From: an uncultured Candidatus Saccharibacteria bacterium
GTDB taxonomy: Bacteria; Patescibacteriota; Minisyncoccia; 2-02-FULL-40-12
NCBI GenBank assembly: GCA_964361105.1
Contig: CAYHZG010000001.1
Coordinates: forward strand, 1-41,292
Reading direction: 5' to 3'
Length of the DNA: 41,292 nt
This document shows positions 374 to 22,437 of this stretch, in pieces; positions within the stretch are counted from its first letter, which is position 1; every line of letters begins with the position of its first letter. Made by a program: the position numbers and the translations under genes. Under the pieces are notes generated by a model, which worked only from the letters and a program-made list of their open reading frames with translations, was not told the origin of the DNA and did no database searches.

Positions 374-1357
374 ATGTCTCTAAATCTAAAAAACAAGAGA
401 ATTCTTGTTACCGGCGGAGCCGGATTTATAGGAAGTTTCTTAGTTGAAAAGTTAGTCAAAATAGAAGCAAAAGTTAGGGTTGCTGATAACTTATCCAACG
501 GCTCTTTGGATAATTTAAAAAGTGTCAAAAATAAAATAGAGTTTTTGAAGCTTGATTTAAGGAACTATAAAAATTGCTTAAAAGCAACCGAGGGTCAGGA
601 TTTTGTTTTCAATTTGGCCGCAAAAGTCACCAATATCGGATACAACCGGGAACATCACATAGAAATGTTTGAAGAAAATATGCTTCTGCAAATGTATCCG
701 ATAAAAGCCGCTTTTGAAAATAAGGTTAAGAAATTTTTGCAGGGTTCCACCGTCTGTGTCTACCCCCATGATGCGATTATACCCACTCCCGAATCAGAAG
801 GAGAAAAAGGCCGGCCCGAAGATACCAATGAAGGTTATGGCTGGGCCAAAAGGATGGGCGAGGTGCTGGCCAAGTTCTATCATCAAAAAGGAATGCCGGT
901 AGTAGTCTCAAGATTTTCTAACGCCTACGGACCAAGAGACCATTTTGATTTAAAAATTGCCCATGTTATACCGGCCTTTATAGTTAAATGCTTAAAAAAT
1001 AAAAATGTGGAGGTTTGGGGAACAGGTAAACAAACCCGCTCTTTCCTTTACGTAGAAGATGCAGCCGAAGCCCTGCTAAAAATTATGAGATATGCCGAAG
1101 ATCCATATCCGATAAATACCGGCGGCAGCAAAATGATTTCCATGGAAAACCTATTGAAGCTAATCATAAAAGAGTTAAAAACAAATAATCAAGTAGTCTG
1201 GGATACTTCTTATTCTGACGGCCACAAAGAGAGACAGGCTGACACGACCAGAATGAAAAAAATCACCGACTGGACTCCTAAAACTGATTTAAAAGTAGGC
1301 CTTAAAAAAACGATTGACTGGTACTTAACGAGCCGAGCCGTTAAGCCGGGAAAATAA
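374..1357 (+). CDS. extended-SDR NAD(P)-dependent sugar epimerase/reductase, GDP-L-fucose synthase (Fcl)-like
   Basis: Rossmann motif GGAGFIGS and YGWAK (YxxxK). The block NAYGPRDHF..AHVIPAFI..VWGTGKQTRSFLYVEDAA parallels Fcl-type 3,5-epimerase/4-reductases. Confidence 0.75.
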   Translation: MSLNLKNKRILVTGGAGFIGSFLVEKLVKIEAKVRVADNLSNGSLDNLKSVKNKIEFLKLDLRNYKNCLKATEGQDFVFNLAAKVTNIGYNREHHIEMFEENMLLQMYPIKAAFENKVKKFLQGSTVCVYPHDAIIPTPESEGEKGRPEDTNEGYGWAKRMGEVLAKFYHQKGMPVVVSRFSNAYGPRDHFDLKIAHVIPAFIVKCLKNKNVEVWGTGKQTRSFLYVEDAAEALLKIMRYAEDPYPINTGGSKMISMENLLKLIIKELKTNNQVVWDTSYSDGHKERQADTTRMKKITDWTPKTDLKVGLKKTIDWYLTSRAVKPGK

Positions 1358-1987
1358 GTAGTTAGAAATTATATGAATCAGAAAAAGATGTAATGATTCC
1401 ACTGGACCATAGTGGCCCTTAGGTGAATCAATCACGATGGCCTGGCGGCAAATTCTCTTTGCTTCGCCGCCGTCAAACCCAAGGATTCCGAAAGCATCAC
1501 CATCTTTGGAATTGACATATTCAATCGCTTTAATCAGATTCGGCGAGTTTCCGCTTCCTGAAAAAACAATCAAGATATCGCCTGGCCGGTAAAGATTCCT
1601 TAGCTGCCCGACAAAAATTTTTTCATAACCTTCATCGTTGCCTAAAGCACTTATATAAGAGGTGTTATCGGTCAGACTTAGGGTTCTGAAGGGTTTGTCT
1701 TTTCCGGCACCGGCGCACAATGCCAAATCTTCGGCAAAGTGCGAGGCCGTGGCCGCGCTTCCGCCGTTTCCGATAACAAAAATTGTCGCTTCCCGCTCTC
1801 TGGCTTCTAAAAGAACTTCCGCTAATTTTTTAATTGAATCAATATCGATGGATTTAACCAAATCAAAAAAATTTTCAGTATATTTTTTGAAAAATCGGCT
1901 GAATGAAATTTTTGGTTCTTTAAAAATTTGTTCGACTCTATTCATTAAGAAGCTCTTATATCTTAGCAAAAATTGTTTAAATTTCAA
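1325..1987 (-). CDS. gmhA: D-sedoheptulose-7-phosphate isomerase (SIS domain, GmhA-like)
   Basis: VIGNGGSAATASHFAEDL, GNDEGYEKIF, GDILIVFSGSGNSPNLIKAI and GFDGGE match the GmhA SIS pattern. The 3' end overlaps the convergent 374-1357 gene by 33 nt. Met15 (1945) is an alternative start. Confidence 0.75.
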   Translation of the reverse strand: MKFKQFLLRYKSFLMNRVEQIFKEPKISFSRFFKKYTENFFDLVKSIDIDSIKKLAEVLLEAREREATIFVIGNGGSAATASHFAEDLALCAGAGKDKPFRTLSLTDNTSYISALGNDEGYEKIFVGQLRNLYRPGDILIVFSGSGNSPNLIKAIEYVNSKDGDAFGILGFDGGEAKRICRQAIVIDSPKGHYGPVESLHLFLIHIISNYLFSRLNGSAR

Positions 1988-2035
1988 ATCGGTCGATATG
2001 ACATCTGAACCAAAATCTTATAATATTCAGCTGAT

Positions 2036-3262
2036 ATGAATAAGCTTGAATTATTCCGTTTTTTCAGAGACACATTCGTACCGCCATCCTTAAGACCGCG
2101 TTTTAACTTTTGGTGCCGCTATGTTTTGTATAATCGTTGGTACAGGTTCTACTTTCTAGGATCATTCAATCTTTTAAAATATGTTTCGCGCCCGTTGGGA
2201 AAACGCAAGAAGCGGATCTTGGCCTTTGAAAATTTCTATAATAATTCGCCGGCCTTGGGAAGTTTTCTGGAATTTCAGATGAGGGCGCTTTGCTTAGCCG
2301 AATTGCACGATATTGATACGATAGACATCGCCCTAATTTACGATCTAAAAACACCTCTCTGGAATCCCAAAATGTCGAAATGGCTTAGTCCCTCAAACTT
2401 TCAACTGCTTCTTTACGAAATTCTACCCTTGTTAAACCTGAACTCGAAATTGGGCTCGGTATTTGTATTTAACTGTCGGGACGATTTTGAATCATTTCTA
2501 ACCCAGCATTCGGGAGAATATATTCTCTGCCCTTCCCTATTTCATTATATTAATAAAAGCGGCGCCGCTTCGGGAAATTATGGATTTGTGCGAAATTTTT
2601 ATCTAAAAAAGCGGTATCTGCCTCAATTTGTCTTCAAGCCCAACATTGCTCTTTGGGCCAAGGCCTTTATCAAAAAATATGCCGGAGATAAATATCCTGT
2701 TGCCGTCAACTTGCGGATGAATCCGTTTTTTGGCGAAAACCGCAACTCTGATATTCCTTCCTGGCGCCATCTATTTGAATATTGTCTCAATAAGCACCCG
2801 GAGATTGTTTTTCTGCTTTTGGCTCAACAACAAGAAGCACCAGACGACTTGAAACATATGTCTAATATTATCTTTGTAAAAAACCATAAAACCACTATGG
2901 AGCAGGATATGTGCCTTATCAAACACTCTCTTTTTTTTATGGGCGTCGCTTCCGGGCCGACATCTTTTACTAATCTTACTAATGATATACCATACCGTGT
3001 GTTCCGAGTTCAAATGTTTGATAGAAGCTACACTTATAACTGGCATAAACCGGGAAGCCAGTGGCCCTGGGCGGAAAAAACCCTGCAAAAGCTGGTCTGG
3101 GAAAAAGAATCTCCCGATTCACTAATAAAAGAATTTGAACATTTGTTCCGGCTGGTTGACAAAGAGTCCTGGCGAAAGAAAATGGAAGTAGATCAATCAA
3201 AAATCAAGATCCTGGAGTGGCCGTATATTTATGAAGACAACCAAACCCAATCAAAAAATTAG
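2036..3262 (+). CDS. hypothetical protein, distant GT9/GT-B-like glycosyltransferase
   Basis: 408-aa ORF. The C-terminal block HKTTMEQDMCLIKHSLFFMGVASGPTSF resembles the GT9 block (L..L..LI....LFIGNDSGPMHLA). The rest of the protein is not recognised. Confidence 0.4.
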   Translation: MNKLELFRFFRDTFVPPSLRPRFNFWCRYVLYNRWYRFYFLGSFNLLKYVSRPLGKRKKRILAFENFYNNSPALGSFLEFQMRALCLAELHDIDTIDIALIYDLKTPLWNPKMSKWLSPSNFQLLLYEILPLLNLNSKLGSVFVFNCRDDFESFLTQHSGEYILCPSLFHYINKSGAASGNYGFVRNFYLKKRYLPQFVFKPNIALWAKAFIKKYAGDKYPVAVNLRMNPFFGENRNSDIPSWRHLFEYCLNKHPEIVFLLLAQQQEAPDDLKHMSNIIFVKNHKTTMEQDMCLIKHSLFFMGVASGPTSFTNLTNDIPYRVFRVQMFDRSYTYNWHKPGSQWPWAEKTLQKLVWEKESPDSLIKEFEHLFRLVDKESWRKKMEVDQSKIKILEWPYIYEDNQTQSKN

Positions 3263-4322
3263 GCCCGATCAGGAATTTCCCCATTCAGAAGCCGTTTCTT
3301 ACGCTGAAGAATTCGGGCGGCATTTTACGCGGGATAACCTATTCGGCTATGTGGAAAAAATCAAAAAGATCCGGGTTCTTGTCATTGGCGAAGCAATCCT
3401 GGACGAATATCATTTTGGACACGCCATTGGTAAATCCGCCAAAGAGCCGACCGTGGCCCTGAAATTTATGCAAAAAGAGGTTTACCCCGGCGGCTCTTTA
3501 GCCATCGCCAATCACTTGTCTAATTTTTGTGACGAGGTCGGTCTTTTAGCCATGGCGGGAGAAAAAGAATCTCAAATCAATCTTATTAAAAAGTCATTAA
3601 ATAAAAACATAAAACTTTTCTTGTTCCGTAAAAAAAATTCTCCGACGATAACCAAAAAAAGATTTATAGAAATAAGCCCCATCCAAAAACTGCTGGAGTT
3701 TTACATAATCAACGACTCTGAACTTAGCAAAGCTCAAAGCTTGGAATTAAAAAGAATGCTTGATCTGACAGTACCTAAGTACAACATGGTTATCTGTGCC
3801 GATTTCGGCCACGGCATGATTGACTTAGCGGCCAGAAACACCATCGCGGCCAAGGCGAGGTTTCTAGCCGTAACTGCCCAAGCAAACGCCGGAAATATGG
3901 GCTATCACACCATCTCATTATATCCCAAAGCTGACTATCTGTGCGCCGACGAACGGGAAATAAGACTTGAGACAAGAGAAAGGAACAAAGGAATTCCAGA
4001 AATCGTAAAGGAACTTCAAAATAGGTTTTCGTATAAAAATTTGATTATTACGGCGGGTGAGGCAGGGTGTTTTCTGGTACAAAGGAATAAAATTATCCGG
4101 ATCCCGGCGCTGGTTGATAAAACCATTGATAGGGTGGGAGCCGGAGATGCCTTCCTTTCAATTACCGCTCCTTTGATATTTAGCAAAGCTCCGGCAGAAG
4201 TGGTTGGCTTTATCGGCAACGCCGTCGGCGCCATTGCCGCGAACATCATCGGAAACGAAAGGCCGGTCACCAAAGAAATGCTTTATGATTTTTTGAATAA
4301 AACCATAGGATGGACAAAATAG
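3231..4322 (+). CDS. hldA: PfkB-family sugar kinase, RfaE/HldE domain I-like (heptose-7-phosphate kinase)
   Basis: VLVIGEAILDEY..PGGSLAIANHL N-terminal block and C-terminal VDRVGAGDAFLS anchor motif. The start is uncertain: ATG 3231 overlaps the upstream ORF by 32 nt, and GTG 3351 is possible. Confidence 0.7.
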   Translation: MKTTKPNQKIRPDQEFPHSEAVSYAEEFGRHFTRDNLFGYVEKIKKIRVLVIGEAILDEYHFGHAIGKSAKEPTVALKFMQKEVYPGGSLAIANHLSNFCDEVGLLAMAGEKESQINLIKKSLNKNIKLFLFRKKNSPTITKKRFIEISPIQKLLEFYIINDSELSKAQSLELKRMLDLTVPKYNMVICADFGHGMIDLAARNTIAAKARFLAVTAQANAGNMGYHTISLYPKADYLCADEREIRLETRERNKGIPEIVKELQNRFSYKNLIITAGEAGCFLVQRNKIIRIPALVDKTIDRVGAGDAFLSITAPLIFSKAPAEVVGFIGNAVGAIAANIIGNERPVTKEMLYDFLNKTIGWTK

Positions 4323-5308
4323 CCGTTATCGGCAGCAACTCTTTTTCCGGCAGTCATTGTGTCAGCTATTTTCTGGAAAATAGCGATTTTGAAGTTATAG
4401 GCATAAGCCGATCGCCCGAATATCCGCCGGTGATGCTGCCCTATCTTTACAAAAAAAACAAGCGGCCGGCCCGATTCAAATTTTATCAGCTTGATCTAAA
4501 CAAAAATCCCAAACAAATAATCAATCGGCTCGACCGGGAAAAACCCGACATCATCGTCAATTTCGCCGCCCAGGGCATCGTGCCTTTAAGCTGGAACTCG
4601 CCGGAAGATTGGTTCAGAACAAATTGCTTAGGGATAGTCAATCTTACCAATGGCCTGCGTGAAAAGAAATATCTAAAAAAATACATCCAGGTTTCAACGC
4701 CGGAAATTTACGGCCCATGCAAAAACTTCAAAGAAACTCTCACATATTATAATCCCTCTACTCCCTACGCCGCATCAAAGGCAGCGGCTGATTTATTTTT
4801 AGTAACCCTATATAAAAAATTCGGCTTCCCGGTTTGTTTTACCCGTTCGGCCAATGTTTACGGCCCTCATCAGCAACTCTTCAGGATCATACCTAAGTCC
4901 GTGATCTCAATTAAAAAGGGACAAAAAATCCCTCTTCACCAGGGAGGATTAATAAGCCGAAGTTTTGTTCATATCACTGACGTGATGCGAGGCATTCATA
5001 AAATCATTAACCAAGGCCGAGCCGGTGAGGTTTATCACTTTGCCACCGGACAAAATATAACCATTAAAGAACTGGTTTCTATGATTTGCAAAAAAATTGG
5101 GATTAGTTTTGAAAAATCAGTCAAGAAAAGTGGCGACCGGCCGGGCCAGGATGATACCTATGACCTTAATTTTGCCAAAACAAGCAGGGAACTCGACTGG
5201 AAACCGACAATTGAGCTTGAAAGCGGCCTTGATGGTATCATCACCTGGATTAATGAATCGTGGTCAAAAATTCAAAAACTCCCTCTGGAATACAGCCATA
5301 AAAAATGA
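4310..5308 (+). CDS. NDP-sugar 4,6-dehydratase (RfbB/DmhA-like extended SDR)
   Basis: STPEIYG, YAASKAAADLF and RPGQDDTY parallel the STDEVYG, YSASKAA and RPGHDRRY blocks of 4,6-dehydratases. The glycine motif GSNSFSGS is atypical. Confidence 0.7.
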   Translation: MDKIAVIGSNSFSGSHCVSYFLENSDFEVIGISRSPEYPPVMLPYLYKKNKRPARFKFYQLDLNKNPKQIINRLDREKPDIIVNFAAQGIVPLSWNSPEDWFRTNCLGIVNLTNGLREKKYLKKYIQVSTPEIYGPCKNFKETLTYYNPSTPYAASKAAADLFLVTLYKKFGFPVCFTRSANVYGPHQQLFRIIPKSVISIKKGQKIPLHQGGLISRSFVHITDVMRGIHKIINQGRAGEVYHFATGQNITIKELVSMICKKIGISFEKSVKKSGDRPGQDDTYDLNFAKTSRELDWKPTIELESGLDGIITWINESWSKIQKLPLEYSHKK

Positions 5309-5814
5309 ACAAAATTTTATCTTTTAAACAACTCGTTCAGGAAATAAAGAAATTAAAAAAGAAAGATAAAAAGATCGGCTACTGCAACGGCAATTACGAC
5401 CTTTTGCACCCCGGTCATGCCAAGCATTTTGAATCCGCCAAAAAGCTCTGCGATGTCTTAGTGGTATCCGTGGCCAGCGACGCTTTTGTCAAAAAATGGA
5501 AGGACAAGAGCCGGCCAGTTTTTTCCGAAAAACTAAGAGCTTATATGGTCAGCCAGCTGGAACCAGTTGATTTTGTGACTATTAATACCCATCATAACGG
5601 CTCCGGGATAAAGTTTTTCAATTTACTGAAGCCGGATTACTACATCCGAGGACCGGATTACATAAATTCCAGAGCTAAACAATACCTCAAAGAAAAAGCT
5701 CTGGCTATAAAAGCTGGCTGTGCCGTAAGATACACCAAGGACCTGAAACTATCTGCCAGAGAAATCATCAAAAGCATAAAGGAAAACAAAACCTATCGAA
5801 TCAAGTCAATTTAA
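5305..5814 (+). CDS. hldC: cytidylyltransferase-fold nucleotidyltransferase, RfaE/HldE domain II-like (heptose-1-phosphate adenylyltransferase)
   Basis: GNYDLLHPGHAKHF carries an intact HxGH motif, and KPDYYIRGPDY is present. ATGA overlap with the upstream gene. The stop codon overlaps the stop of the convergent ThDP gene (5811-5814). Confidence 0.7.
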   Translation: MNKILSFKQLVQEIKKLKKKDKKIGYCNGNYDLLHPGHAKHFESAKKLCDVLVVSVASDAFVKKWKDKSRPVFSEKLRAYMVSQLEPVDFVTINTHHNGSGIKFFNLLKPDYYIRGPDYINSRAKQYLKEKALAIKAGCAVRYTKDLKLSAREIIKSIKENKTYRIKSI

Positions 5815-7616
5815 ACAGGTTCAATAAGCATGTTGCTCTGGTGTTCTTCTTCGGGCAAAAACGGATACATTCTTTCAATCGGCGAACCTAAGTAGCCACG
5901 CGATTTGTCCAAAACCGAAAGAGGGATCAGCGGCTGGTCCACGGGCATCATCACTTCGCATAAAACCGGCGAGCTTGAGTGTTTGGCTGAAAGCATGAGT
6001 TTTATCATCGTCTGGAGCTTTCGAAGGTCGCCCAATCGGTAAGCCACGACACCATAGGCCTTGGCGATTTTTGTGAAATTCGGGGCACTGTAACCGCTTT
6101 TGGGTTCTGAACCAGAATAATAGCGATCAAAAAACATTTCTTGGGTATGCTTAATGGTCAAATAGCTTTCATTATTGAGAATAAATATTTTTAAAGGAAT
6201 TTTATAATGCACGACTGTTTGTAGTTCTTGGATATTCATCTGAAAACCGCCATCGCCAAATATACCAATAATTCTCCTGCCCCCGCCGCCAAACCAGGCG
6301 CCAATTGCTCCGGGCAGGCCGTAACCCATCGGCGCAAAACCGGTATTGGTAAATATCCGCTGTCGCCCTTTGACTTTGAAGGTCTGCATCGTCGAGGTTA
6401 AGCTCGTCCCCATGTCGGTTACAACAATATCATCATCTTTTAAGTTTCGACAAAGTTCCTGGATAAAAATGTAAGAATTGATTCTCTTTTTAGTTTTATA
6501 ATAGGCGGGCAGGACAACCGGGTACTTGGCCTTCCATTCACGGCATTTCTTAAGCCAGTCGCTAACATCTGGAATATTGTTGATTTTTATTTGCTTGGTA
6601 AGGGCTTCGATAAATTTATCAGCCGGAGCGACAATCGGAAGGTCAATCTTTAACAAGTTTTTACCCAACTCATGTTCGTCAATATCGATAACTACCTTTT
6701 TGGCTAACCGAGCGTAAAGGTCTGGTTTATTGCCAACCTGGCGGGTATCCAGTCTTGAACCGATGGCAATGATTAAATCGGCATTGGCTATTGCATAGTT
6801 TGAACCACGTTGACCCATTACGCCAGCCGAGCCGATAAAAAACGGATGGTCATGACTGATTAAATCAAGGCCATTCCAAGTTAAAATAAACGGAAATCTT
6901 AATTTGTTTAATAAAGCAAGGAGTTTAGCCGGACCGCGACGGGGGTCGCTCAATCTGACCCCGTGGCCGGCAATTATTATAGGTCTTTGGCTTTTTTTGA
7001 GCATCATCAAAACTTGCTTTATTGTTTCGCTGCTAGGCAAACCATCTGAAAGAGCCCTATCTGCTTCCTGGTAGCCAGTCAGTTTTTGGGGTTCAATTTG
7101 GGCGTGCTGAAGATTAGTCGGCAGGTCTAGCCAAACCGGTCCTTTTCTGCCTGTTTTAGCCAAGAAAACCGCTTTTTCCAAATGATATCTGATGTCCCGT
7201 TGATCCGTGACCATGGCGGCATATTTAGAGTACGGCTTTGCTCCCTCGATAATGTTTATGTGCTGAACGCCAAGTTGCCTGATGGTCCGGCCGTCGGTCG
7301 TCAAAGATAGCGGCAGCTGGCCCGAAATAAAAATGCAGGGCACCGAATCGGTCCAGGCACAGCAAAGACCGGTAAAGGCATTAGTCCCTCCGGGGCCTGA
7401 TGTCACAAGCGCCGCCCCGATATTGCCGGTCGCTCTGGCATAGGCTTCTGCTGCCATAGCCGCTCCCTGCTCATGCTGGGTACAAACAAATTTAATATTC
7501 CGATTCTTGAAAAACGAGTCGGCTAAGTGGCCATTGGCCCCTCCGACAATGCCGAAAACATGCCTGATGCCCAGTTGATTTCTCAAAAATTTAACGACGT
7601 AGTCAGAAAGTTTCAT
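5811..7616 (-). CDS. thiamine-diphosphate-dependent enzyme of the acetolactate-synthase large-subunit family (YerE-like candidate)
   Basis: N-terminal GIVGGANGH region and C-terminal ThDP motif GDGGFQMN...NNESY. I start it at ATG 7616 (MKLSDYVV), 1 nt after the HAD stop, not at 7661. Confidence 0.8.
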   Translation of the reverse strand: MKLSDYVVKFLRNQLGIRHVFGIVGGANGHLADSFFKNRNIKFVCTQHEQGAAMAAEAYARATGNIGAALVTSGPGGTNAFTGLCCAWTDSVPCIFISGQLPLSLTTDGRTIRQLGVQHINIIEGAKPYSKYAAMVTDQRDIRYHLEKAVFLAKTGRKGPVWLDLPTNLQHAQIEPQKLTGYQEADRALSDGLPSSETIKQVLMMLKKSQRPIIIAGHGVRLSDPRRGPAKLLALLNKLRFPFILTWNGLDLISHDHPFFIGSAGVMGQRGSNYAIANADLIIAIGSRLDTRQVGNKPDLYARLAKKVVIDIDEHELGKNLLKIDLPIVAPADKFIEALTKQIKINNIPDVSDWLKKCREWKAKYPVVLPAYYKTKKRINSYIFIQELCRNLKDDDIVVTDMGTSLTSTMQTFKVKGRQRIFTNTGFAPMGYGLPGAIGAWFGGGGRRIIGIFGDGGFQMNIQELQTVVHYKIPLKIFILNNESYLTIKHTQEMFFDRYYSGSEPKSGYSAPNFTKIAKAYGVVAYRLGDLRKLQTMIKLMLSAKHSSSPVLCEVMMPVDQPLIPLSVLDKSRGYLGSPIERMYPFLPEEEHQSNMLIEPV

Positions 7617-7617
7617 T

Positions 7618-8241
7618 TTATGGTGATAAATAAGAATATAACTGCGGCAGGTTTCTGGCAATAAAGTCAGGGTTAATCAAACGAAGCTCTTTGGGCGAAT
7701 GAAAGCCCCAGCTTACGCCTATTGCTTTTAGGCCCAGTTTTTTAGCCAGTTCAAGGTCGCCGCAAGTATCGCTAACCATTGCCGCTTCTTGAGGGGAAAT
7801 TTTGAGCCGCTCCAAAGCCAGATTAATTTGCTTCCTCTTATCTTGATTATCGCCGGCGCCAACGAAATAAAAGCATCCCTTAATCTTAGCGCCGGCGAAT
7901 AACTTATTGATCCAACGGCTCTCTCCAGACGAAACCACAGCTAAAGCAAATGCCCGGCTAATCTTTTCAACAAAACCAGGCATGCCGGGAAAGAGTTTAA
8001 CCGCCGAATAGTATTTCCCGAAATTCTGATGCCTGAACTCGGAAAACTTGCCGTAGGCCGCGTCGCTTTTTATAAATTTACGCACACCGCTATGGTAATT
8101 ATCAATAAAAAAATCTCGATACATTATTTTGGAAAGTTTGATCCCAATTTTGGCCATCGCCTCTTTATTTAAGCCGTAGAGATGCTCAAAAGAATCCGCT
8201 AAAACACCATCGAAATCAAAAACAATCGCTTTAACTTTCAT
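7618..8241 (-). CDS. HAD-IA family phosphatase
   Basis: FDFDGVLADS (DxDx[TV]) and MVSDTCGDLELAKKLG (motif IV). Confidence 0.8.
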   Translation of the reverse strand: MKVKAIVFDFDGVLADSFEHLYGLNKEAMAKIGIKLSKIMYRDFFIDNYHSGVRKFIKSDAAYGKFSEFRHQNFGKYYSAVKLFPGMPGFVEKISRAFALAVVSSGESRWINKLFAGAKIKGCFYFVGAGDNQDKRKQINLALERLKISPQEAAMVSDTCGDLELAKKLGLKAIGVSWGFHSPKELRLINPDFIARNLPQLYSYLSP

Positions 8242-8984
8242 CTTGCTGGGCTAACCCGCTTAATGGTCAGAAGGCACAGGTCGGCAAGGACGGCTTTGTC
8301 CAACTCGCCGAGCCCTTCCCTCTCTAAAATATCAACTGGCCCGTATACAACATCTCCCTGCCTAGAAACAATGCGACCGCCCAGGATCACGGCTAAACCA
8401 ATCTTTTCTCGGTTGATCTCGGCCGAATCCTCGCCGTTTTTTAGAGTTTTGATACAAATGTTTTTGCCACCGAAATTTTTTGTAATATTGACTTCGGTGA
8501 CGGAGAATCTGGCAAGATCAGCCGCGGTCTCCATTTCTTTTAAACCCTCGTAACCCTTATTGGCCCGGCCGTACCTATCTTCCAAGCGAATAATATCGTG
8601 TTTCATCGGGGGGGTTTCAAACTCCAGAATCCTGACTCCGCCCGGAGAAACTGCCTGGGTTGAATGAAAAACGCCTGGATCCAGAATGGCCGCGGACATA
8701 GGTAACAGCTCGATCGATTCATTCAGGGATGAAAGCCGGGCTTTTCCGTCTAAAACAACCAGGGCTGTTTTTTTATTGGGGTGACAATGCATCGAAGTGG
8801 CCTCACTTTGCTTTATAAACAAATTCCAAACCTCAACTTCCGAATTTCGATACACCAAGTATTCGTTACCCCAGGGCTTGTTTACAATCAATTCCGAAAA
8901 ATTAGCCTCAATAGCCGTAACCTTGTAAGGCCGGACAGCCAGATAATCTTTATCAAGCTTAGTCTGATCAAATCTTAAAATCAT
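8238..8984 (-). CDS. cupin-domain protein (type II phosphomannose-isomerase C-terminal-like)
   Basis: WGNEYLV..MHCHPNKKTALVVLDG..FHS cupin pattern. ATGA overlaps on both sides. Contains a C7 run in the coding strand (8608-8614). Confidence 0.55.
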   Translation of the reverse strand: MILRFDQTKLDKDYLAVRPYKVTAIEANFSELIVNKPWGNEYLVYRNSEVEVWNLFIKQSEATSMHCHPNKKTALVVLDGKARLSSLNESIELLPMSAAILDPGVFHSTQAVSPGGVRILEFETPPMKHDIIRLEDRYGRANKGYEGLKEMETAADLARFSVTEVNITKNFGGKNICIKTLKNGEDSAEINREKIGLAVILGGRIVSRQGDVVYGPVDILEREGLGELDKAVLADLCLLTIKRVSPAR

Positions 8985-9529
8985 TTGAATTTTGCCAGGA
9001 TAGCTTTCATTAAATCACCAACATCTCGGGGATGACGGGCCGTAATGATATGCCCGTCAACTACCGCTGGTTTATCAACGTAAATAGCGCCGGCATTTTT
9101 AAGATCGTCAATGATACCGGGATAGCCGGTGGCTTTTTTATTTTTCAAAATCCCAGCTGAAATCAAAACCCAAGGGCCGTGGCAGAAAGCGGCAATTATT
9201 TTTTTATGACGATCCATCGTTCTTACAAATTCCAAAACTTCAGGGGTCTGCCTCACCCGATCCGGCGCCTCAAACCCGCCAGGAATCAAAACCAGATCAT
9301 AATCTTTGGGATCAAGAGCGGTGGAGTCAACCAAGGTACTGTAATATTTAACGACTAATTCAAGCGGGAAATTCAGTCTTCCGTTTACCAGTTTCTTTCC
9401 TTTAGTGGCAATATCAACCTCAAAGCCAGCTTCTTTTAAACGAATAACCGGATAAATCACTTCTTCATCCTCAAAGCCTTCGGCGGTAATAACCACTGCT
9501 TTGTGCCTAGTCAAAATTTTTCTTTTCAT
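8981..9529 (-). CDS. DJ-1/PfpI family protein (class I glutamine-amidotransferase-like fold)
   Basis: Nucleophile elbow AAFCHGPWVL, and VVDGHIITARHPRD near the C-terminus. Confidence 0.85.
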   Translation of the reverse strand: MKRKILTRHKAVVITAEGFEDEEVIYPVIRLKEAGFEVDIATKGKKLVNGRLNFPLELVVKYYSTLVDSTALDPKDYDLVLIPGGFEAPDRVRQTPEVLEFVRTMDRHKKIIAAFCHGPWVLISAGILKNKKATGYPGIIDDLKNAGAIYVDKPAVVDGHIITARHPRDVGDLMKAILAKFK

Positions 9530-9532
9530 AAT

Positions 9533-10390
9533 TTAAACTGCCTTCAGACGATACTCCATTGCTCCGTCTTCGAGCCTGGTGAATTCAAACCCGGGAAAGT
9601 CGGCTGAAAACTTCGACAAGTCAAATCTCAAATTCGGAGAAATCTTGGCATTTTGAACCATCTTGATTCCTGTTCTTTTCCCGCAAACATTAAAGGCTAC
9701 CTCGGCCAGGTTTTTCAAAGAGGTGCCGTTGCCGTCGGCGATAATGTTGTAATCGCCGGTTTTGCCTTCATTAATAATCGAGCGGATAGCCCGCCAAGCG
9801 TCCTCCTTATGAAGCCAAACCAACCTGGTAGAATCATCGCCGTGCATTTCAATCGGCCGACCGGCATAGACATCGTTTATAAACCGGAACAAAGGGCTTC
9901 GGTTGTCGCCTTGACCGTAAAGAATTCCAGGCCGCACAATCGTCAAATTAACTTTAGAGTCTTGGCAGGCTCGATTAAACATTATCTCACCGATTAGCTT
10001 GGCCGTGCTGTAAATATCATCCGGCTTGACCGGGCTCGATTCAACAATCGGAACATCAGAATGATGACCATAAATTGCCGTTGAGCTTACCAAAATAAAA
10101 TGCTTTACGTGACCTAACAACTCTGGGTTGGCCAAATTGTTAAACATAGCGATTTCTTTCCAAAATGCGCCATAACTCTTTTCTTTATTCAAGGCCGAGG
10201 CCGCCATAATCATCACGGCGTTTTGACCCGAAATCCCGACTAATTTAGGAATTGCCTCTTCGGACGTAAGATCAAGGTCGGCTGACGAAAGGCCCACGAC
10301 CTCGTGTTCTCCATCTTTGGAAAAATTTTCATAGAGACAACTCCCCAAAAATCCCCGGCGACCTAAAATTATTATCTTTGATTTAGCCAT
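9533..10390 (-). CDS. NAD(P)-dependent sugar epimerase/reductase (SDR, RmlD-size)
   Basis: GRRGFLGS and YSTAKLIGE (YxxxK). SD-like GGCGGAG lies 5 nt upstream of the ATG. Confidence 0.75.
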   Translation of the reverse strand: MAKSKIIILGRRGFLGSCLYENFSKDGEHEVVGLSSADLDLTSEEAIPKLVGISGQNAVMIMAASALNKEKSYGAFWKEIAMFNNLANPELLGHVKHFILVSSTAIYGHHSDVPIVESSPVKPDDIYSTAKLIGEIMFNRACQDSKVNLTIVRPGILYGQGDNRSPLFRFINDVYAGRPIEMHGDDSTRLVWLHKEDAWRAIRSIINEGKTGDYNIIADGNGTSLKNLAEVAFNVCGKRTGIKMVQNAKISPNLRFDLSKFSADFPGFEFTRLEDGAMEYRLKAV

Positions 10391-10403
10391 TGTGGCTCCG
10401 CCT

Positions 10404-11417
10404 TTATTTTTTACTACATCTTATAACACCCCGCAACAGTCGGCCGGCCGTAAGATCATCTATGCCAGCATTAACGTTATCTAATTCGTAAATCTTACTA
10501 ACCAATTTGTTGATAGGCAAAGAACCATTAAGATACATCTTGGCATAGAAAGGTATGTCTTGATCGGGAAAACACATATCAAACCTGGTGCCCCTTAATA
10601 CTTTGCCGGTTAAAAGCCCCCAATAGTCAATGGAGATTTTGGTGCCGGGCTCCAAATTACCGGCAATAATGGCAGTGCCAGTCGGTTTCAAAAATTCGTA
10701 GGCCATTTCCATAGCCGTTTTGCTGCCGCTACATTCAATCGAATAGTCAAAGGTCCCTTTAAGCCCCTCTATTTCGGCATCGCTTGGGTTAATGGCTATT
10801 ACCTTGAGCTCTTCTTTCACCCACTTTAATTTCCACGGCACAATATCAAAAGCATGGCACTTGACTCCTAAAGATGCGGCTCTCATCAGGGCACTAGCGC
10901 CAAGACCGCCAATACCGAATACAGCAAGTCTATGGCCGGCGTTTATTTGGTGTTTATCAACAATGCCCGCCCCGACCTGGACCGCGCATCCCAAAAGTGA
11001 AGCAATTTGTGGCTCAACTGCTTTCGGAATAACGACCAGTCTGTTTTCGGAAATTACGGCATACTCGCTGAATACGGAACAGGCGCCGGCATTTACCGCG
11101 CCTTTGCTACTTTGGTATCTGACCGAAGGCGCCTCAAGGCCCGCTCCCCTAACCCAAGTACAAGCCACGTAATCACCAGGCTTAACCTTTGAAACCCCGT
11201 CTCCAATTTCCATAACCTCACCCGAGGCTTCGTGGCCGAGCAAATGAGGAATAAATTCAGCTCCCTTTCTTCCTTTAATTTCGTTAACGTTGCTGTGACA
11301 TAAACCTCCGAAAAGCACTTTAATAAGCGTCTGACCTCTTTGAAGTTTGGGAATTTCTAATTCCTCTATCGTAAGCGGCCCGCCAATATTTATTAGAACT
11401 GCTGCCTTGGTTTTCAT
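10404..11417 (-). CDS. zinc-binding medium-chain alcohol dehydrogenase
   Basis: GLCHSNVNE and GHEASGEV zinc-ligand motifs, and a GIGGLGAS dinucleotide fold. Confidence 0.85.
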   Translation of the reverse strand: MKTKAAVLINIGGPLTIEELEIPKLQRGQTLIKVLFGGLCHSNVNEIKGRKGAEFIPHLLGHEASGEVMEIGDGVSKVKPGDYVACTWVRGAGLEAPSVRYQSSKGAVNAGACSVFSEYAVISENRLVVIPKAVEPQIASLLGCAVQVGAGIVDKHQINAGHRLAVFGIGGLGASALMRAASLGVKCHAFDIVPWKLKWVKEELKVIAINPSDAEIEGLKGTFDYSIECSGSKTAMEMAYEFLKPTGTAIIAGNLEPGTKISIDYWGLLTGKVLRGTRFDMCFPDQDIPFYAKMYLNGSLPINKLVSKIYELDNVNAGIDDLTAGRLLRGVIRCSKK

Positions 11418-11435
11418 CTGTAATTTAGATGCGCC

Positions 11436-12092
11436 TCAAGCAAAAAACCAATAATAATCGCCGGTGTAACCGACTTCCTTAAAAAGTTTTTTCCAATCAT
11501 CAACGTGCATGATGGTCCCGCCCAGAACCACGACCCATTTGAAAAGCCTCTCTTTTTCCAAATCATTGCGCCAGGCATCAATCGTTATAAAGGCGTGCTT
11601 TTTCGATACCCGCTGAATTTCCCTGATGGCTTGTTTGCATTCTTCCAGAGGAAGAGCGTGAACAGTGGTAATAGAAACTACCAAATCAAAAGACTTGTCA
11701 GGAAAAGGCAAGCTCCTGGCGTTGGCCACCTGAATGAACGGCTTAACGTCTTCCATGGCATTATCAATGGCATATTCGGAAATATCAATCCCAGCCACTT
11801 TGATGCCGGGTATAAGTTTCATAAGGTCATGAAGCATAAAGCCCTTGGCGCAGCCGACATCCAAAACACTGCTTGAAGCGTCAAGTTTGTAGTGATCTCT
11901 GAATTTTTCAACAATTTTTACCCAACGGCCGTCATATTTATAGCCGCCGTATCCGTAGAGTCTATCCTCGTCAAAAAATTCTTTACCGAACTTACTTGCT
12001 GCCTTTCTCTGTTCCAGAGTAATATTCTTCGCCCGCCAATCAACGTCTCTATCAAGGTTGGGGTAAAAATCCATAAGATTAATCTCGGGCAT
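11436..12092 (-). CDS. class I SAM-dependent methyltransferase
   Basis: Motif I VLDVGCAKGF, with the downstream acidic and hydrophobic motifs of the Methyltransf_11 type. Confidence 0.8.
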   Translation of the reverse strand: MPEINLMDFYPNLDRDVDWRAKNITLEQRKAASKFGKEFFDEDRLYGYGGYKYDGRWVKIVEKFRDHYKLDASSSVLDVGCAKGFMLHDLMKLIPGIKVAGIDISEYAIDNAMEDVKPFIQVANARSLPFPDKSFDLVVSITTVHALPLEECKQAIREIQRVSKKHAFITIDAWRNDLEKERLFKWVVVLGGTIMHVDDWKKLFKEVGYTGDYYWFFA

Positions 12093-12170
12093 ATGATTCT
12101 TTTTTATCCTACACTAATAAATATTTTTTTCAAGCGGATTATTCCTTATTTAAATTATCTTTAAGTCAAA

Positions 12171-12202
12171 CCCCCCACACTCACGAATGGAGCATGGGGG
12201 GG
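12171..12202 (-). terminator. putative intrinsic terminator downstream of the radical SAM gene
   Basis: On the minus strand, CCCCCCA (from 12202-12196) pairs with TGGGGGG (12177-12171) around a 17-nt interior that holds a further 3-bp stem. TTTGACTT follows. The U-tract is weak. Confidence 0.45.
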
Positions 12203-12213
12203 CGTGAAGGAAC

Positions 12214-13461
12214 TTAGATAATGTTCCCGCGATGGGGAAAGCCCTTAGCGGCAAGATTAGCTTCAAGTCGCCGAAGTTCCGCCTCCTGCTCTTCTGGCTG
12301 GAGGTTGAGCAGCCAATACAGGTAGCGGTTTTCGTGGTCGGGATGGCAGCTTTTGGTGCAGACACTGATGTCAAATGTTTTCATTGACTCAAGATGCTGC
12401 TCTCGGCGCTCGCCAAACCAGATTTCTCTGAAGCCCTGCTCCTTGATGTTGCCGAGGTAAAACTGACTCTCCCGCCACTGAGCCATTTTCGAAGCAGGCA
12501 GCCAGTGACCCGAACAGGAAACCAAAAGCCCGTCGGACTGCATATAACACCACAGGGTCGGCGTTGCATGACAGACCGGGTAGCCCCGGTCGGGCATTTC
12601 GTACTCTTTGAAGCGGCTAAACCGAAAGACCACTTCAAAGTCATCAGTTTCGTACCGCTCACGGAGCCTCTCGCCTGTCTCCAGAATCTCATCCATTATC
12701 GGCTCATAGCTCATGTCGCCATAGAGTTCAAAGGTCTCGCGGTTCTGGGGCGGTTGTCTATAGGGCTTGAAGCAAACATAGTCGGCCCCGGCATCCCTTG
12801 TCCTCTGAATCAGGGCTTCGGCTTCTGGCCAGTTTGCCTTAACCCGCGCTCCTTTTTTGTTCAACGCTCCTTTCACGGTCACGGTCATGTTGACCCCAAC
12901 CTCGCACTTGCTTTTGAGCTCCCGTTTGATTCTGGCAACCCGCCTAATGTTGTCCCAGAGGCGCGACCAATCACCCGGATCGACCTGATGGAAGTTGGCA
13001 TAAGACTCGGCCGTTCCGGCATTAACGCTGAACTGGAGATAGACGTTAATGAAAGGGAGGACTTCCTCGGCGCGTTTTTCAGTGAAGGCCACGCCGTTGG
13101 AGAGCATTCCCACGTCAATTCCGGCGATTCGGGCTTGTTCGCATATCTTGCCGAGCTGCGGCTCCAGCATCGGTTCGCCTTCGCCAGCAAACTGAACGCT
13201 TCTGATGCCCAATCCATCCGGATCTGCCTCTCTTAACTCCCGGGCTTCCCCAAAAAATCTGGTTAAGACCGGGAGACTAAGATAATTGTACTTGAATTCC
13301 AGGATGGAAGGAGCGCAATGCAGACAGCGGTGATTGCAACCTCCGGCCGGAGAAACCTCGCAATAGATCGGCGGAACAGAAAACGGATCCTTAATCAAAC
13401 GGCGCAGCCAGGCCGGATGGTTCTGAACTTTAGTACCCTCAAACCACTCTCGAATCTTCAT
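12214..13461 (-). CDS. radical SAM enzyme with C-terminal Cys-rich (twitch/SPASM-like) extension
   Basis: CNHRCLHC (Cys42/46/49) and a GEGEP motif. Five C-terminal Cys (VCHATPTLWC..SC..CTKSC). Strong SD GGAGGAA upstream of ATG 13461. GC is visibly higher than in the neighbouring genes. Confidence 0.85.
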   Translation of the reverse strand: MKIREWFEGTKVQNHPAWLRRLIKDPFSVPPIYCEVSPAGGCNHRCLHCAPSILEFKYNYLSLPVLTRFFGEARELREADPDGLGIRSVQFAGEGEPMLEPQLGKICEQARIAGIDVGMLSNGVAFTEKRAEEVLPFINVYLQFSVNAGTAESYANFHQVDPGDWSRLWDNIRRVARIKRELKSKCEVGVNMTVTVKGALNKKGARVKANWPEAEALIQRTRDAGADYVCFKPYRQPPQNRETFELYGDMSYEPIMDEILETGERLRERYETDDFEVVFRFSRFKEYEMPDRGYPVCHATPTLWCYMQSDGLLVSCSGHWLPASKMAQWRESQFYLGNIKEQGFREIWFGERREQHLESMKTFDISVCTKSCHPDHENRYLYWLLNLQPEEQEAELRRLEANLAAKGFPHRGNII

Positions 13462-13554
13462 GGGCTTCCTCCAGAATAAACACTTACCCTAATTGTAAAG
13501 GTAAAACCTACTCTAAAATATCATATTCAACTGCTAAAAACAAATCAATCTGAT

Positions 13555-21825: not shown

Positions 21826-21858
21826 AGGTTAGCACAAAACAGAAAAGAGGTGATAAAA

Positions 21859-22437
21859 GTGCTTAAAAAGCCGACAATCGTGGTCATCTGCGGGTGGCCT
21901 TGTTCAGGGAAAAGCGCAGTGGCTCGGGAACTAAGAAAAAGCATCCCAATGCATTTGATTGACAGCGACGAGACGCGGCAATTCGCTGTCGGCGGATTCA
22001 ATCCAAACTGGGAAGCTACTGAAGAAGCGCGGCGTCAAAATCAACAAGAAATGGCGCTCTGTTACGACATTGCCCACCGGGCTGCAGCTACCCACGCCAA
22101 GCTGGGTAAACACCTGATGCTTACCTTTCTGTACACCAGCCCGACTTCATGGAAGTTCCTCCGTGAAGCGCTATCGCCATACCCAGACACAGCGCTGAAA
22201 GTAATCTGGTGTTATCCTGGCTTTGATGACGAATCTCGAATCAGGACTATTCTGGAAAAACGAGTAACCGAAGGGTACTTCGGCGGATCGCAGACTTATG
22301 AACACTATTGCTACAACAAGTCTCAATTCCATCCGCCCGAGGTCCCCCATCTCAAGGTCCTGACTTTCGTTCAAACACCAGAAGAGTGCGCCCGGCAGGC
22401 CCTAAACTACATTCTGACACTAGAACCTTCTGCCTAA
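21859..22437 (+). CDS. P-loop NTPase/kinase (AAA_33 / zeta-toxin-like fold)
   Basis: Walker A GWPCSGKS, and DSDE. RBS AAGAGGTGA followed by GTG 21859; the ORF-track start 21850 lies inside the RBS. GC is clearly above that of the neighbours. Confidence 0.6.
   Translation: MLKKPTIVVICGWPCSGKSAVARELRKSIPMHLIDSDETRQFAVGGFNPNWEATEEARRQNQQEMALCYDIAHRAAATHAKLGKHLMLTFLYTSPTSWKFLREALSPYPDTALKVIWCYPGFDDESRIRTILEKRVTEGYFGGSQTYEHYCYNKSQFHPPEVPHLKVLTFVQTPEECARQALNYILTLEPSA

Follow-up and report, generated by a model that had tools for sequence, protein, structure and literature searches.

The window analysed here is a stretch of 41,292 nucleotides (contig CAYHZG010000001.1, positions 1 to 41,292) from an uncultured Candidatus Saccharibacteria bacterium, whose source genome is a 524-kb groundwater bin in 59 contigs with a guanine-cytosine (GC) content of 40.6%. 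On its minus strand, at positions 12214-13461, lies a gene for a radical S-adenosylmethionine (SAM) protein of 415 aa, hereafter rSAM, with a twitch-like (truncated SPASM) C-terminal part. This assignment combines the open reading frame (ORF) and its translation, Pfam matches, an alignment of homologs, a structural model and GC content. An earlier note, made from the sequence alone, had described the gene as a GC-rich and laterally acquired tailoring enzyme at the head of an operon in a glycan locus. We show that rSAM is an intact radical SAM enzyme, that it is almost certainly a foreign gene derived from GC-richer Patescibacteria, and that it is no odd tailoring enzyme but a standard component of an uncharacterised gene cassette that recurs across genomes. 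The sole other Radical_SAM match of the genome is located on contig C51.

The protein carries the radical SAM cluster motif C42-x3-C46-x2-C49, the CxxxCxxC motif of the earlier note, which is invariant in 34 of the 34 aligned homologs. Its SAM-binding motif of the GGE type (AGEGEP, residues 92-97) is nearly invariant in the same alignment. The Pfam profiles PF04055 (Radical_SAM) and PF13186 (SPASM) score 43.7 bits (cut-off 29.5) and 28.7 bits (cut-off 21.5), respectively, the latter in agreement with the twitch/SPASM-type domain that had been proposed. Five cysteines are indeed present in the C-terminal part, but only four of them are invariant among the 34 homologs (C297, C316, C368 and C372), whereas C305 is variable. 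The segment C297-x13-G311-x4-C316 corresponds to the first half of the SPASM motif (CX9-15GX4C). The second half, CX2CX5CX3C, is cut down to C368-x3-C372, and the seven cysteines of a full SPASM domain are thus not reached. With four invariant cysteines and a β-hairpin (residues 304-314) between the first two, as seen in the alignment and the model, the sequence follows the twitch pattern. Because four invariant C-terminal ligands are available, rSAM probably binds one auxiliary [4Fe-4S] cluster and not two as in a full SPASM domain. The AlphaFold2 model, computed from the 34-homolog alignment, is of high confidence, with a predicted local distance difference test (pLDDT) score of 92.8 and a predicted template modelling (pTM) score of 0.91.

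Three shadow ORFs had been reported as antisense to the gene. The ORF list contains one such frame, of 280 aa at 12394-13236 on the plus strand and wholly within the rSAM coding sequence (CDS), whereas the ORFs at 12381-12692 and 12885-13217 lie on the same strand as rSAM in a different frame. The antisense ORF is not a gene; it results from the high GC content.

The gene is equipped with its own expression signals. A Shine-Dalgarno (SD) sequence, GGAGGAA, can be read at 13466-13472 of the minus strand, with its GGAGG core 6 nt before the ATG, in line with the earlier note. About 59 nt before the start codon, in the divergent intergenic region (29% GC), a consensus scan found a promoter-like TTGATT-17-TATGAT (13520-13548, minus strand, 9 of 12 positions), which is a candidate promoter by pattern match. 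Past the stop codon, a terminator scan and RNA folding identified a hairpin (C7...G6) on the minus strand at 12171-12201, starting after 13 nt and comprising 12 pairs, of which 8 are G-C. Folding of the spacer RNA gave a z of -2.87, and the centroid structure retains this stem only. The hairpin that had been noted thus exists; the T-tract behind it is weak: TTTGACTT. The hairpin is a probable terminator or stabiliser of the mRNA 3' end and marks the downstream end of the GC-rich segment.

Downstream of rSAM, a tightly packed operon of seven genes (5811-12092, minus strand; Pfam and NCBIfam) encodes, in this order, a methyltransferase, a Zn-dependent alcohol dehydrogenase, a short-chain dehydrogenase/reductase (SDR), a DJ-1/PfpI protein, a cupin, a haloacid dehalogenase-like (HAD) phosphatase and a thiamine diphosphate (ThDP) enzyme. 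The methyltransferase gene starts at 12092, and the intergenic spacer between it and rSAM measures 121 nt (12093-12213), as had been noted. The AT-rich part of this spacer (12093-12170, GC 20.5%) contains, according to a consensus scan of the minus strand, a promoter-like TTGAAA-16-TAGGAT (12133-12106) ahead of the methyltransferase gene. The placement of rSAM at the head of the operon is not supported, as the hairpin and this promoter-like site separate the two. Its closest homolog for which DNA is available, at locus L019, likewise stands alone: an SD of its own (AAGGAAGGAG) precedes it, and directly past the stop codon a strong terminator hairpin is accompanied by a T-run. rSAM is thus probably its own transcription unit as predicted from these signals, and the stand-alone layout that it has in common with the L019 gene fits movement as a one-gene cassette.

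The base composition of rSAM departs strongly from that of its genome. Its CDS has a GC content of 53.7% (z of about 3), a level reached in only 0.2% of the genome's 1,248-bp windows. At third codon positions the GC content (GC3) is 62.5%, whereas the genome averages 39.8%, which places the gene fourth among 471 ORFs (z = 3.05). The z-values for the first and second codon positions (GC1 and GC2) are 1.9 and 1.1, respectively. A Karlin-type codon distance ranks the gene 9th among the 298 genes of at least 200 aa. At both ends of rSAM, the GC content drops from above 50% to 25-32% inside 50 bp, and the GC-rich stretch is bounded exactly by the start codon and the 12-bp hairpin. The flanking genes have a GC content of 38-46%, not as low as the 30% that had been given as the lower end of the surroundings. 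As a control, the rSAM protein was rewritten 1,000 times with the codon frequencies of the genome. The recoded sequences had a mean GC of 45.6% (maximum 48.2%) and a mean GC3 of 42.7% (maximum 50%). Of the excess of about 13 GC points, about 8 come from synonymous codon choice and about 5 from amino-acid composition. The difference between gene and flanks is +11.5 points, the largest among rSAM and 68 further family members (mean -0.7, SD 3.7). A copy of the gene in Yanofskybacteria has a GC content of 53% and a GC3 of 0.61, which shows that GC-rich versions exist within the Candidate Phyla Radiation (CPR). The GC and codon-usage calculations thus bear out the earlier description of a GC-richer foreign gene.

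Other ORFs of the same bin also combine a GC3 of 0.58-0.80 with very atypical codons, namely C6:6763-7440, C5:599-1465, C7:4978-8547, C14:105-1043, C14:8293-8949 and C12:346-1902, and include a large serine-recombinase-like protein. These ORFs may represent further foreign or mobile islands.

In the family tree, rSAM groups with 100% support with a copy from a Paceibacterota bin (70% identity) and with P0002 (75% identity, available as protein only), its closest homologs. This group is nested in a larger clade consisting of Patescibacteria only, with other phyla in the other half of the tree, which points to another CPR bacterium as the donor. The gene was not found in seven sampled genomes of the taxonomic family of the window, and within the order it was seen in one genus only, at 41% identity. 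We compared three genomes, those of the window (G000), of locus L019 (G041) and of locus L025 (G042, a bin labelled as Saccharibacteria). Their core genes are roughly equidistant, with identities of 79-81% for EF-Tu and 74-75% for the C-terminus of RpoB (65% over 963 aa of RpoB between G000 and G041). Between G000 and G041, the rSAM proteins share 70% identity and the acetolactate synthase-like (ALS-like) ThDP enzymes 35%. Between G000 and G042, rSAM drops to 41%, whereas the ALS-like enzyme reaches 59%, the DJ-1/PfpI protein 82%, the cupin 52% and the HAD phosphatase 43%. The block of DJ-1, cupin, HAD and ALS-like genes has the same order in the window (5811-9529) and at L025 (3139-6905), and the 82% of DJ-1 lies above the 80% of EF-Tu. 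These unequal identities show that rSAM and the adjoining operon differ in history, and CPR lineages seem to have exchanged the operon block as well. With its atypical composition, its sharp boundaries and a phylogeny that is incongruent with both the organismal and the neighbouring genes, the transfer of rSAM within the CPR is well supported. The lateral acquisition claimed earlier is therefore sustained by the phylogeny, with a donor on the CPR side and not an outside lineage.

A native gene that owes its GC content to amino-acid composition or to selection on codons or mRNA would be in keeping with the 11 of 11 examined CPR loci in which the rSAM homolog is GC-richer than its flanks (by +1.7 to +8.4 points), and with the share of the excess that amino-acid composition provides. 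We consider this improbable: the observed GC3 exceeds the maximum of all 1,000 genome-codon simulations, the GC excess is the largest in the family, and rSAM is more similar to its G041 counterpart than RpoB is, whereas the adjoining ThDP enzyme is far less so. The missing gene in the seven related genomes also argues against it. Expression-linked codon bias was rejected as the source, because highly expressed genes of the genome are not GC3-rich (0.447 for an EF-Tu fragment and 0.42 for RpoB). An assembly or binning chimera, in which a GC-rich fragment of another organism was joined into the contig, deserves next to no credence. The genome is a metagenome bin with two overlapping rpoB fragments, but three independent assemblies, one from a Logan run and two from ENA that represent separate replicates, read across both rSAM junctions at 99.97-100% identity, and the composition changes exactly at the gene boundaries. 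The two rpoB pieces (C33:486-2270 and C35:4236-4985) cover the same profile positions (~292-541), so that the bin may combine DNA of two strains or populations, although little contamination was reported for it.

The genes around rSAM confirm that it lies in a glycan locus. The last gene of the downstream operon (5811-7661, minus strand), 4.5 kb from rSAM, encodes the ALS-like ThDP enzyme of 616 aa, identified with Pfam and NCBIfam. Adjacent to it, a set of heptose-type sugar activation genes (374-5814; Pfam) comprises an SDR (374-1357), a GmhA-like SIS isomerase (1325-1987, minus strand), an unknown 408-aa protein between the SIS and PfkB genes, a PfkB kinase (3231-4322), a second SDR (4310-5308) and a cytidylyltransferase-like nucleotidyltransferase (5305-5814). 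The divergent module upstream of rSAM encodes an ABC exporter, a glycosyltransferase, an SDR, a DegT aminotransferase and an acetyltransferase. A P-loop kinase gene of the AAA_33 type at 21850-22437 forms a second GC-richer, self-contained single-gene cassette (GC 50.9%, GC3 53.6%). Its product is weakly related (23% identity) to that of the AAA_33 gene directly after rSAM in a sister CPR subclade (L025-L028). A joint acquisition of rSAM and this kinase was considered and dropped, since the close relatives of the kinase adjoin GT9 genes and not rSAM.

A homolog search in 5.8 billion proteins yielded 92 full-length homologs of rSAM, which are 25-75% identical to it with 85% or more of the length covered, all of them unnamed or generically named. 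A profile search in 1.84 billion representatives gave a family size of 1,146 clusters at 50% identity (E ≤ 1e-30). rSAM belongs to this family by its full-length homology and by the four invariant auxiliary cysteines. In the NCBIfam scan, every match remained far under its cut-off. The best match was TIGR04317, a tungsten-cofactor maturase (54.2 bits, cut-off 380), and MoaA (22.4, cut-off 284), TYW1 (22.7, cut-off 318), NirJ (26.5, cut-off 515), the DesII model TIGR04426 (22.2, cut-off 450), the prokaryotic viperin model NF038283 (36.3, cut-off 180) and PqqE likewise fell far below theirs; NrdG, another housekeeping family considered, did not reach its cut-off either. Since no model comes near its cut-off, rSAM is not a housekeeping enzyme, and the search for a housekeeping radical SAM family that would have explained the gene came out negative. 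Sequence and profile searches against the PDB gave matches in the radical SAM core only, to MoaA (1.7e-11), DesII (1.3e-8), BtrN (5.5e-8) and anSME, which places rSAM at a distance from every solved structure; as a guide to the C-terminal domain, the profile search was uninformative. Foldseek ranked DesII first (TM 0.60, E = 6e-14), followed by SuiB, SkfB, CteB, anSME, MoaA and EpeE. rSAM is thus a member of a large, uncharacterised family, and no curated family or solved structure covers it.

To describe the genomic context of this family, 80 loci were taken from species-representative genomes, their ORFs were called and the neighbours were clustered. The most frequent neighbours were an SDR (54 of the 80 loci), an E1 alpha-type ThDP subunit (41), a fused cytidylyltransferase-like/PfkB protein of about 509 aa (40), a GmhA-like SIS protein (39) and a transketolase-like E1 beta subunit (38), followed by a B12-binding radical SAM enzyme (26), a GT2 glycosyltransferase (22) and a methyltransferase (15). 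With tblastn, 65 of the 80 loci proved to have a ThDP enzyme of one of three types (E1 alpha, E1 beta or ALS-like) in the fetched flanks. Of the 60 loci with a length of 12 kb or more, 53 have such an enzyme no more than 10 kb from rSAM, while SDR neighbours occur in 46, SIS neighbours in 43 and nucleotidyltransferase-PfkB neighbours in 37. The typical order outside the CPR is rSAM, SDR, SIS, nucleotidyltransferase-PfkB, E1 alpha, E1 beta and a second rSAM, whereas most CPR loci have an ALS-like enzyme in place of the E1 pair. In at least 12 phyla, genes of this family regularly form a core together with those for ThDP enzymes and heptose-type activation, and the rarity that the earlier note had attributed to such an enzyme is not borne out. 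Since the window holds the full usual company of the family, with the ThDP enzyme, SIS, PfkB, nucleotidyltransferase and SDRs all present within about 10 kb, rSAM is a regular part of the cassette. The pairing is strong from the side of rSAM and not obligatory from the side of the ThDP enzyme. A literature search on radical SAM, heptose and thiamine found no paper on this combination.

Three further observations concern the context of the family. A second, paralogous radical SAM gene (~330-485 aa) follows E1 beta in most non-CPR cassettes (L029, L034, L043, L048, L060, L063, L070, L084 and L094), while the window has one copy. Glycan loci of the CPR commonly contain radical SAM genes. In 5 of 11 CPR loci, rSAM is adjoined by an unknown protein of ~330 aa (c17; L019 3608-4600, L021 8813-9967, L022 11277-12281, L023 12185-13213 and L053 8947-9945) with a sub-threshold ArgZ-like Rossmann match as its only Pfam hit. 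No homolog of c17 was found in the genome of the window.

To our knowledge, only a small number of radical SAM enzymes use nucleotide sugars as substrates, and nearly all of these come from antibiotic pathways. The twitch enzymes BtrN and SpeY convert a sugar C-H/OH group to a ketone by hydrogen abstraction and pass the electron to the auxiliary cluster; HygY and NeoN are also twitch radical SAM enzymes of aminoglycoside pathways. Against this background we propose the following course of events. Horizontal transfer from a donor among the Patescibacteria with a higher GC content would have brought in the rSAM gene. It would have travelled as a self-contained unit, equipped with its promoter-like site, SD and hairpin, and been inserted beside an operon supplying its usual partners. 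The radical SAM cluster of the enzyme would cleave SAM, and the resulting 5'-deoxyadenosyl radical would take a hydrogen from a C-H of a nucleotide-activated sugar. From the substrate radical, an electron would then pass to the auxiliary cluster, in the manner of BtrN/SpeY-type dehydrogenases, to give a keto (or epimerised) sugar. Both ThDP types found with the family have counterparts that add two-carbon branches to nucleoside diphosphate (NDP)-4-keto-sugars, namely YerE in yersiniose and E1-like pairs in avilamycin and paulomycin (PMC4753412). The rSAM product would feed or follow such a branch addition, of the YerE or AviB1/B2 type, in that rSAM either prepares the carbonyl for the attack by the ThDP enzyme or reworks the branched product. 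The methyltransferase, alcohol dehydrogenase and SDR would finally complete the sugar for the envelope glycan.

Taken as a whole, this explanation, a transferred twitch-like rSAM acting as the sugar-oxidising partner of the ThDP enzyme, is the one that we favour with some confidence. A role in sugar tailoring is very likely, while the more specific assignment as a dehydrogenase or epimerase is put forward tentatively. A wider reading, which includes both mechanism and mobility, is rather doubtful in its combined form: rSAM and the ThDP enzyme would constitute an undescribed two-enzyme module, distributed from the CPR to Proteobacteria, Nitrospinota, Omnitrophota and anammox Planctomycetes, in which rSAM would act on a nucleotide-activated heptose-type sugar to make or rework the acceptor, a keto group or a radical, for a two-carbon unit added by the ThDP enzyme. 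The product would be a chemically new branched or higher-carbon envelope sugar, and the module would be mobile enough for piecemeal assembly by the transfer of gene cassettes, as the window illustrates.

Several observations weigh against the favoured explanation. We infer the substrate, the position attacked and the dehydrogenation outcome from the gene neighbours only. The similarity of rSAM to every solved structure is limited to the core, and DesII, the best fold match, lacks an auxiliary cluster and, with its TM of 0.60, stands close to the peptide-modifying SPASM enzymes (0.54-0.57). An ALS-like ThDP enzyme occurs without this rSAM in three relatives (G038, G005 and G031). Separate transcription is made less certain by the weak T-tract. 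As for the transfer, the donor is unsampled and the nearest homolog with DNA (L019) has a GC content of 46.5%, while the 70-75% identity to the nearest copies gives no sign of a very recent event. No empty site was found in the 40 nearest genomes, which are too divergent and lack the operon; all that they have in common with the window is the ABC transporter, with no more than 49% identity, or the ALS-like enzyme, with no more than 47%.

Within the same family and sugar context, rSAM could perform a different radical chemistry, such as that of a DesII- or AprD4-like dehydratase, deaminase or deoxygenase, or the formation or rearrangement of a C-C bond on the nucleotide sugar, for which the branch introduced by the ThDP enzyme is one potential site. 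DesII ranks first in the structural comparison and appears in both sequence searches, cytosylglucuronate decarboxylase, a radical SAM enzyme acting on a sugar nucleoside, also matches the core, and the second paralogous rSAM of many non-CPR cassettes suggests more than one radical step. These similarities are limited to the common core and fold, and none of them discriminates between chemistries; DesII moreover lacks an auxiliary cluster, for which the four invariant cysteines of rSAM argue, and we regard this alternative as unlikely. That rSAM is a SPASM-type maturase of peptides or proteins, acting on a ribosomally synthesised and post-translationally modified peptide (RiPP) or like anSME, seems very improbable. 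The fold matches to SuiB, SkfB, CteB, anSME and EpeE and the best NCBIfam match, to a tungsten-cofactor oxidoreductase maturase at 54 bits, agree with such a role, but the scores lie far under the cut-offs and four C-terminal cysteines stand against the seven or eight of SPASM maturases. Furthermore, a peptide-recognition domain would not fit into the ~30 residues before the radical SAM core, the vicinity showed neither a small precursor-like ORF nor a sulfatase gene, and the conserved neighbours in the 80 loci are sugar-nucleotide and ThDP genes. An even smaller chance is given to a viperin-like antiviral enzyme that modifies nucleotides. Although NF038283 is the second-best NCBIfam match (E = 3e-9) and the sister CPR subclade has an AAA_33 kinase gene immediately behind rSAM, the 36 bits fall far from the cut-off of 180, viperins have no Cys-rich C-terminal cluster domain, and the gene context is glycan biosynthesis and not defence.

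Comparison with characterised systems shows where the proposed sugar-oxidising rSAM resembles known enzymes and where it departs from them. DesII (TDP-4-amino-4,6-dideoxy-D-glucose deaminase/dehydrogenase; PDB 8hzv, 8hzy) is likewise a radical SAM enzyme acting on a nucleotide-activated sugar and is detectable by sequence in the core, yet at 16-17% identity. It has a long N-terminal extension, no four-Cys auxiliary domain and the gene context of the desosamine pathway, and rSAM differs in all three respects. BtrN (PDB 4m7t) and SpeY (PDB 7wzv) consist of the core and a short C-terminal domain with one four-Cys auxiliary [4Fe-4S] cluster and act on carbohydrates. The sequence pattern of rSAM fits this arrangement, including a β-hairpin flanked by the first two cysteines (C297-x18-C316 in rSAM). 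The likeness to BtrN that had been suggested is thus limited to the predicted architecture of a four-Cys auxiliary site; similarity in sequence is confined to residues 34-135 of the core (E = 5.5e-8) and does not cover the full length. For SpeY, the fold comparison gives a TM of 0.27. Compared with both, rSAM is ~150 aa longer, has an extra helical C-terminal tail and occurs in envelope-glycan loci with ThDP enzymes rather than in antibiotic clusters. The SPASM enzymes anSME, PqqE, SuiB and CteB resemble rSAM in the PF13186 score above the cut-off, the CX9-15GX4C half-motif and a TM of 0.48-0.57, but rSAM has CX2CX5CX3C reduced to CX3C, four cysteines, no peptide-recognition domain and a sugar context. 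In sum, rSAM would be a variant within the known kind of radical SAM enzymes that modify sugars.

The ThDP partners, a single-chain ALS-like enzyme in the window and most CPR loci and an E1 alpha/beta pair in most other phyla, have known analogues in YerE, AviB1/AviB2 and Pau11/Pau12. We know of no radical SAM enzyme described as an obligate partner in these pathways, and avilamycin biosynthesis has a separate epimerase, AviX12. In contrast to the YerE, Avi and Pau pathways, the sugar-activation genes found here are of the heptose type (SIS, PfkB and cytidylyltransferase-like). The family companions resemble the ADP-heptose pathway (GmhA, HldE, GmhB and HldD) in comprising a GmhA-like SIS protein, PfkB, a cytidylyltransferase-like nucleotidyltransferase and an SDR. 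The domain order of the fused family proteins is reversed, however, with the nucleotidyltransferase N-terminal and the kinase C-terminal, while the window has separate genes, and the classical ADP-heptose pathway has no radical SAM or ThDP step.

The rSAM family, with more than 1,000 sequence clusters, is unnamed in curated libraries and tied to ThDP carboligases and heptose-type activation in envelope-glycan loci of many phyla. Its carriers include ultra-small CPR bacteria and also organisms in culture, namely Methylobacter tundripaludum SV96, Methylomonas species and Desulfobacter latus, so that the product sugar and the reaction are open to direct testing. The window is a clear case of one family member moving between CPR lineages as a single-gene cassette. 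In it, rSAM has joined an operon with an apparent exchange history of its own, an illustration of the way in which such minimal genomes vary their surface glycans.

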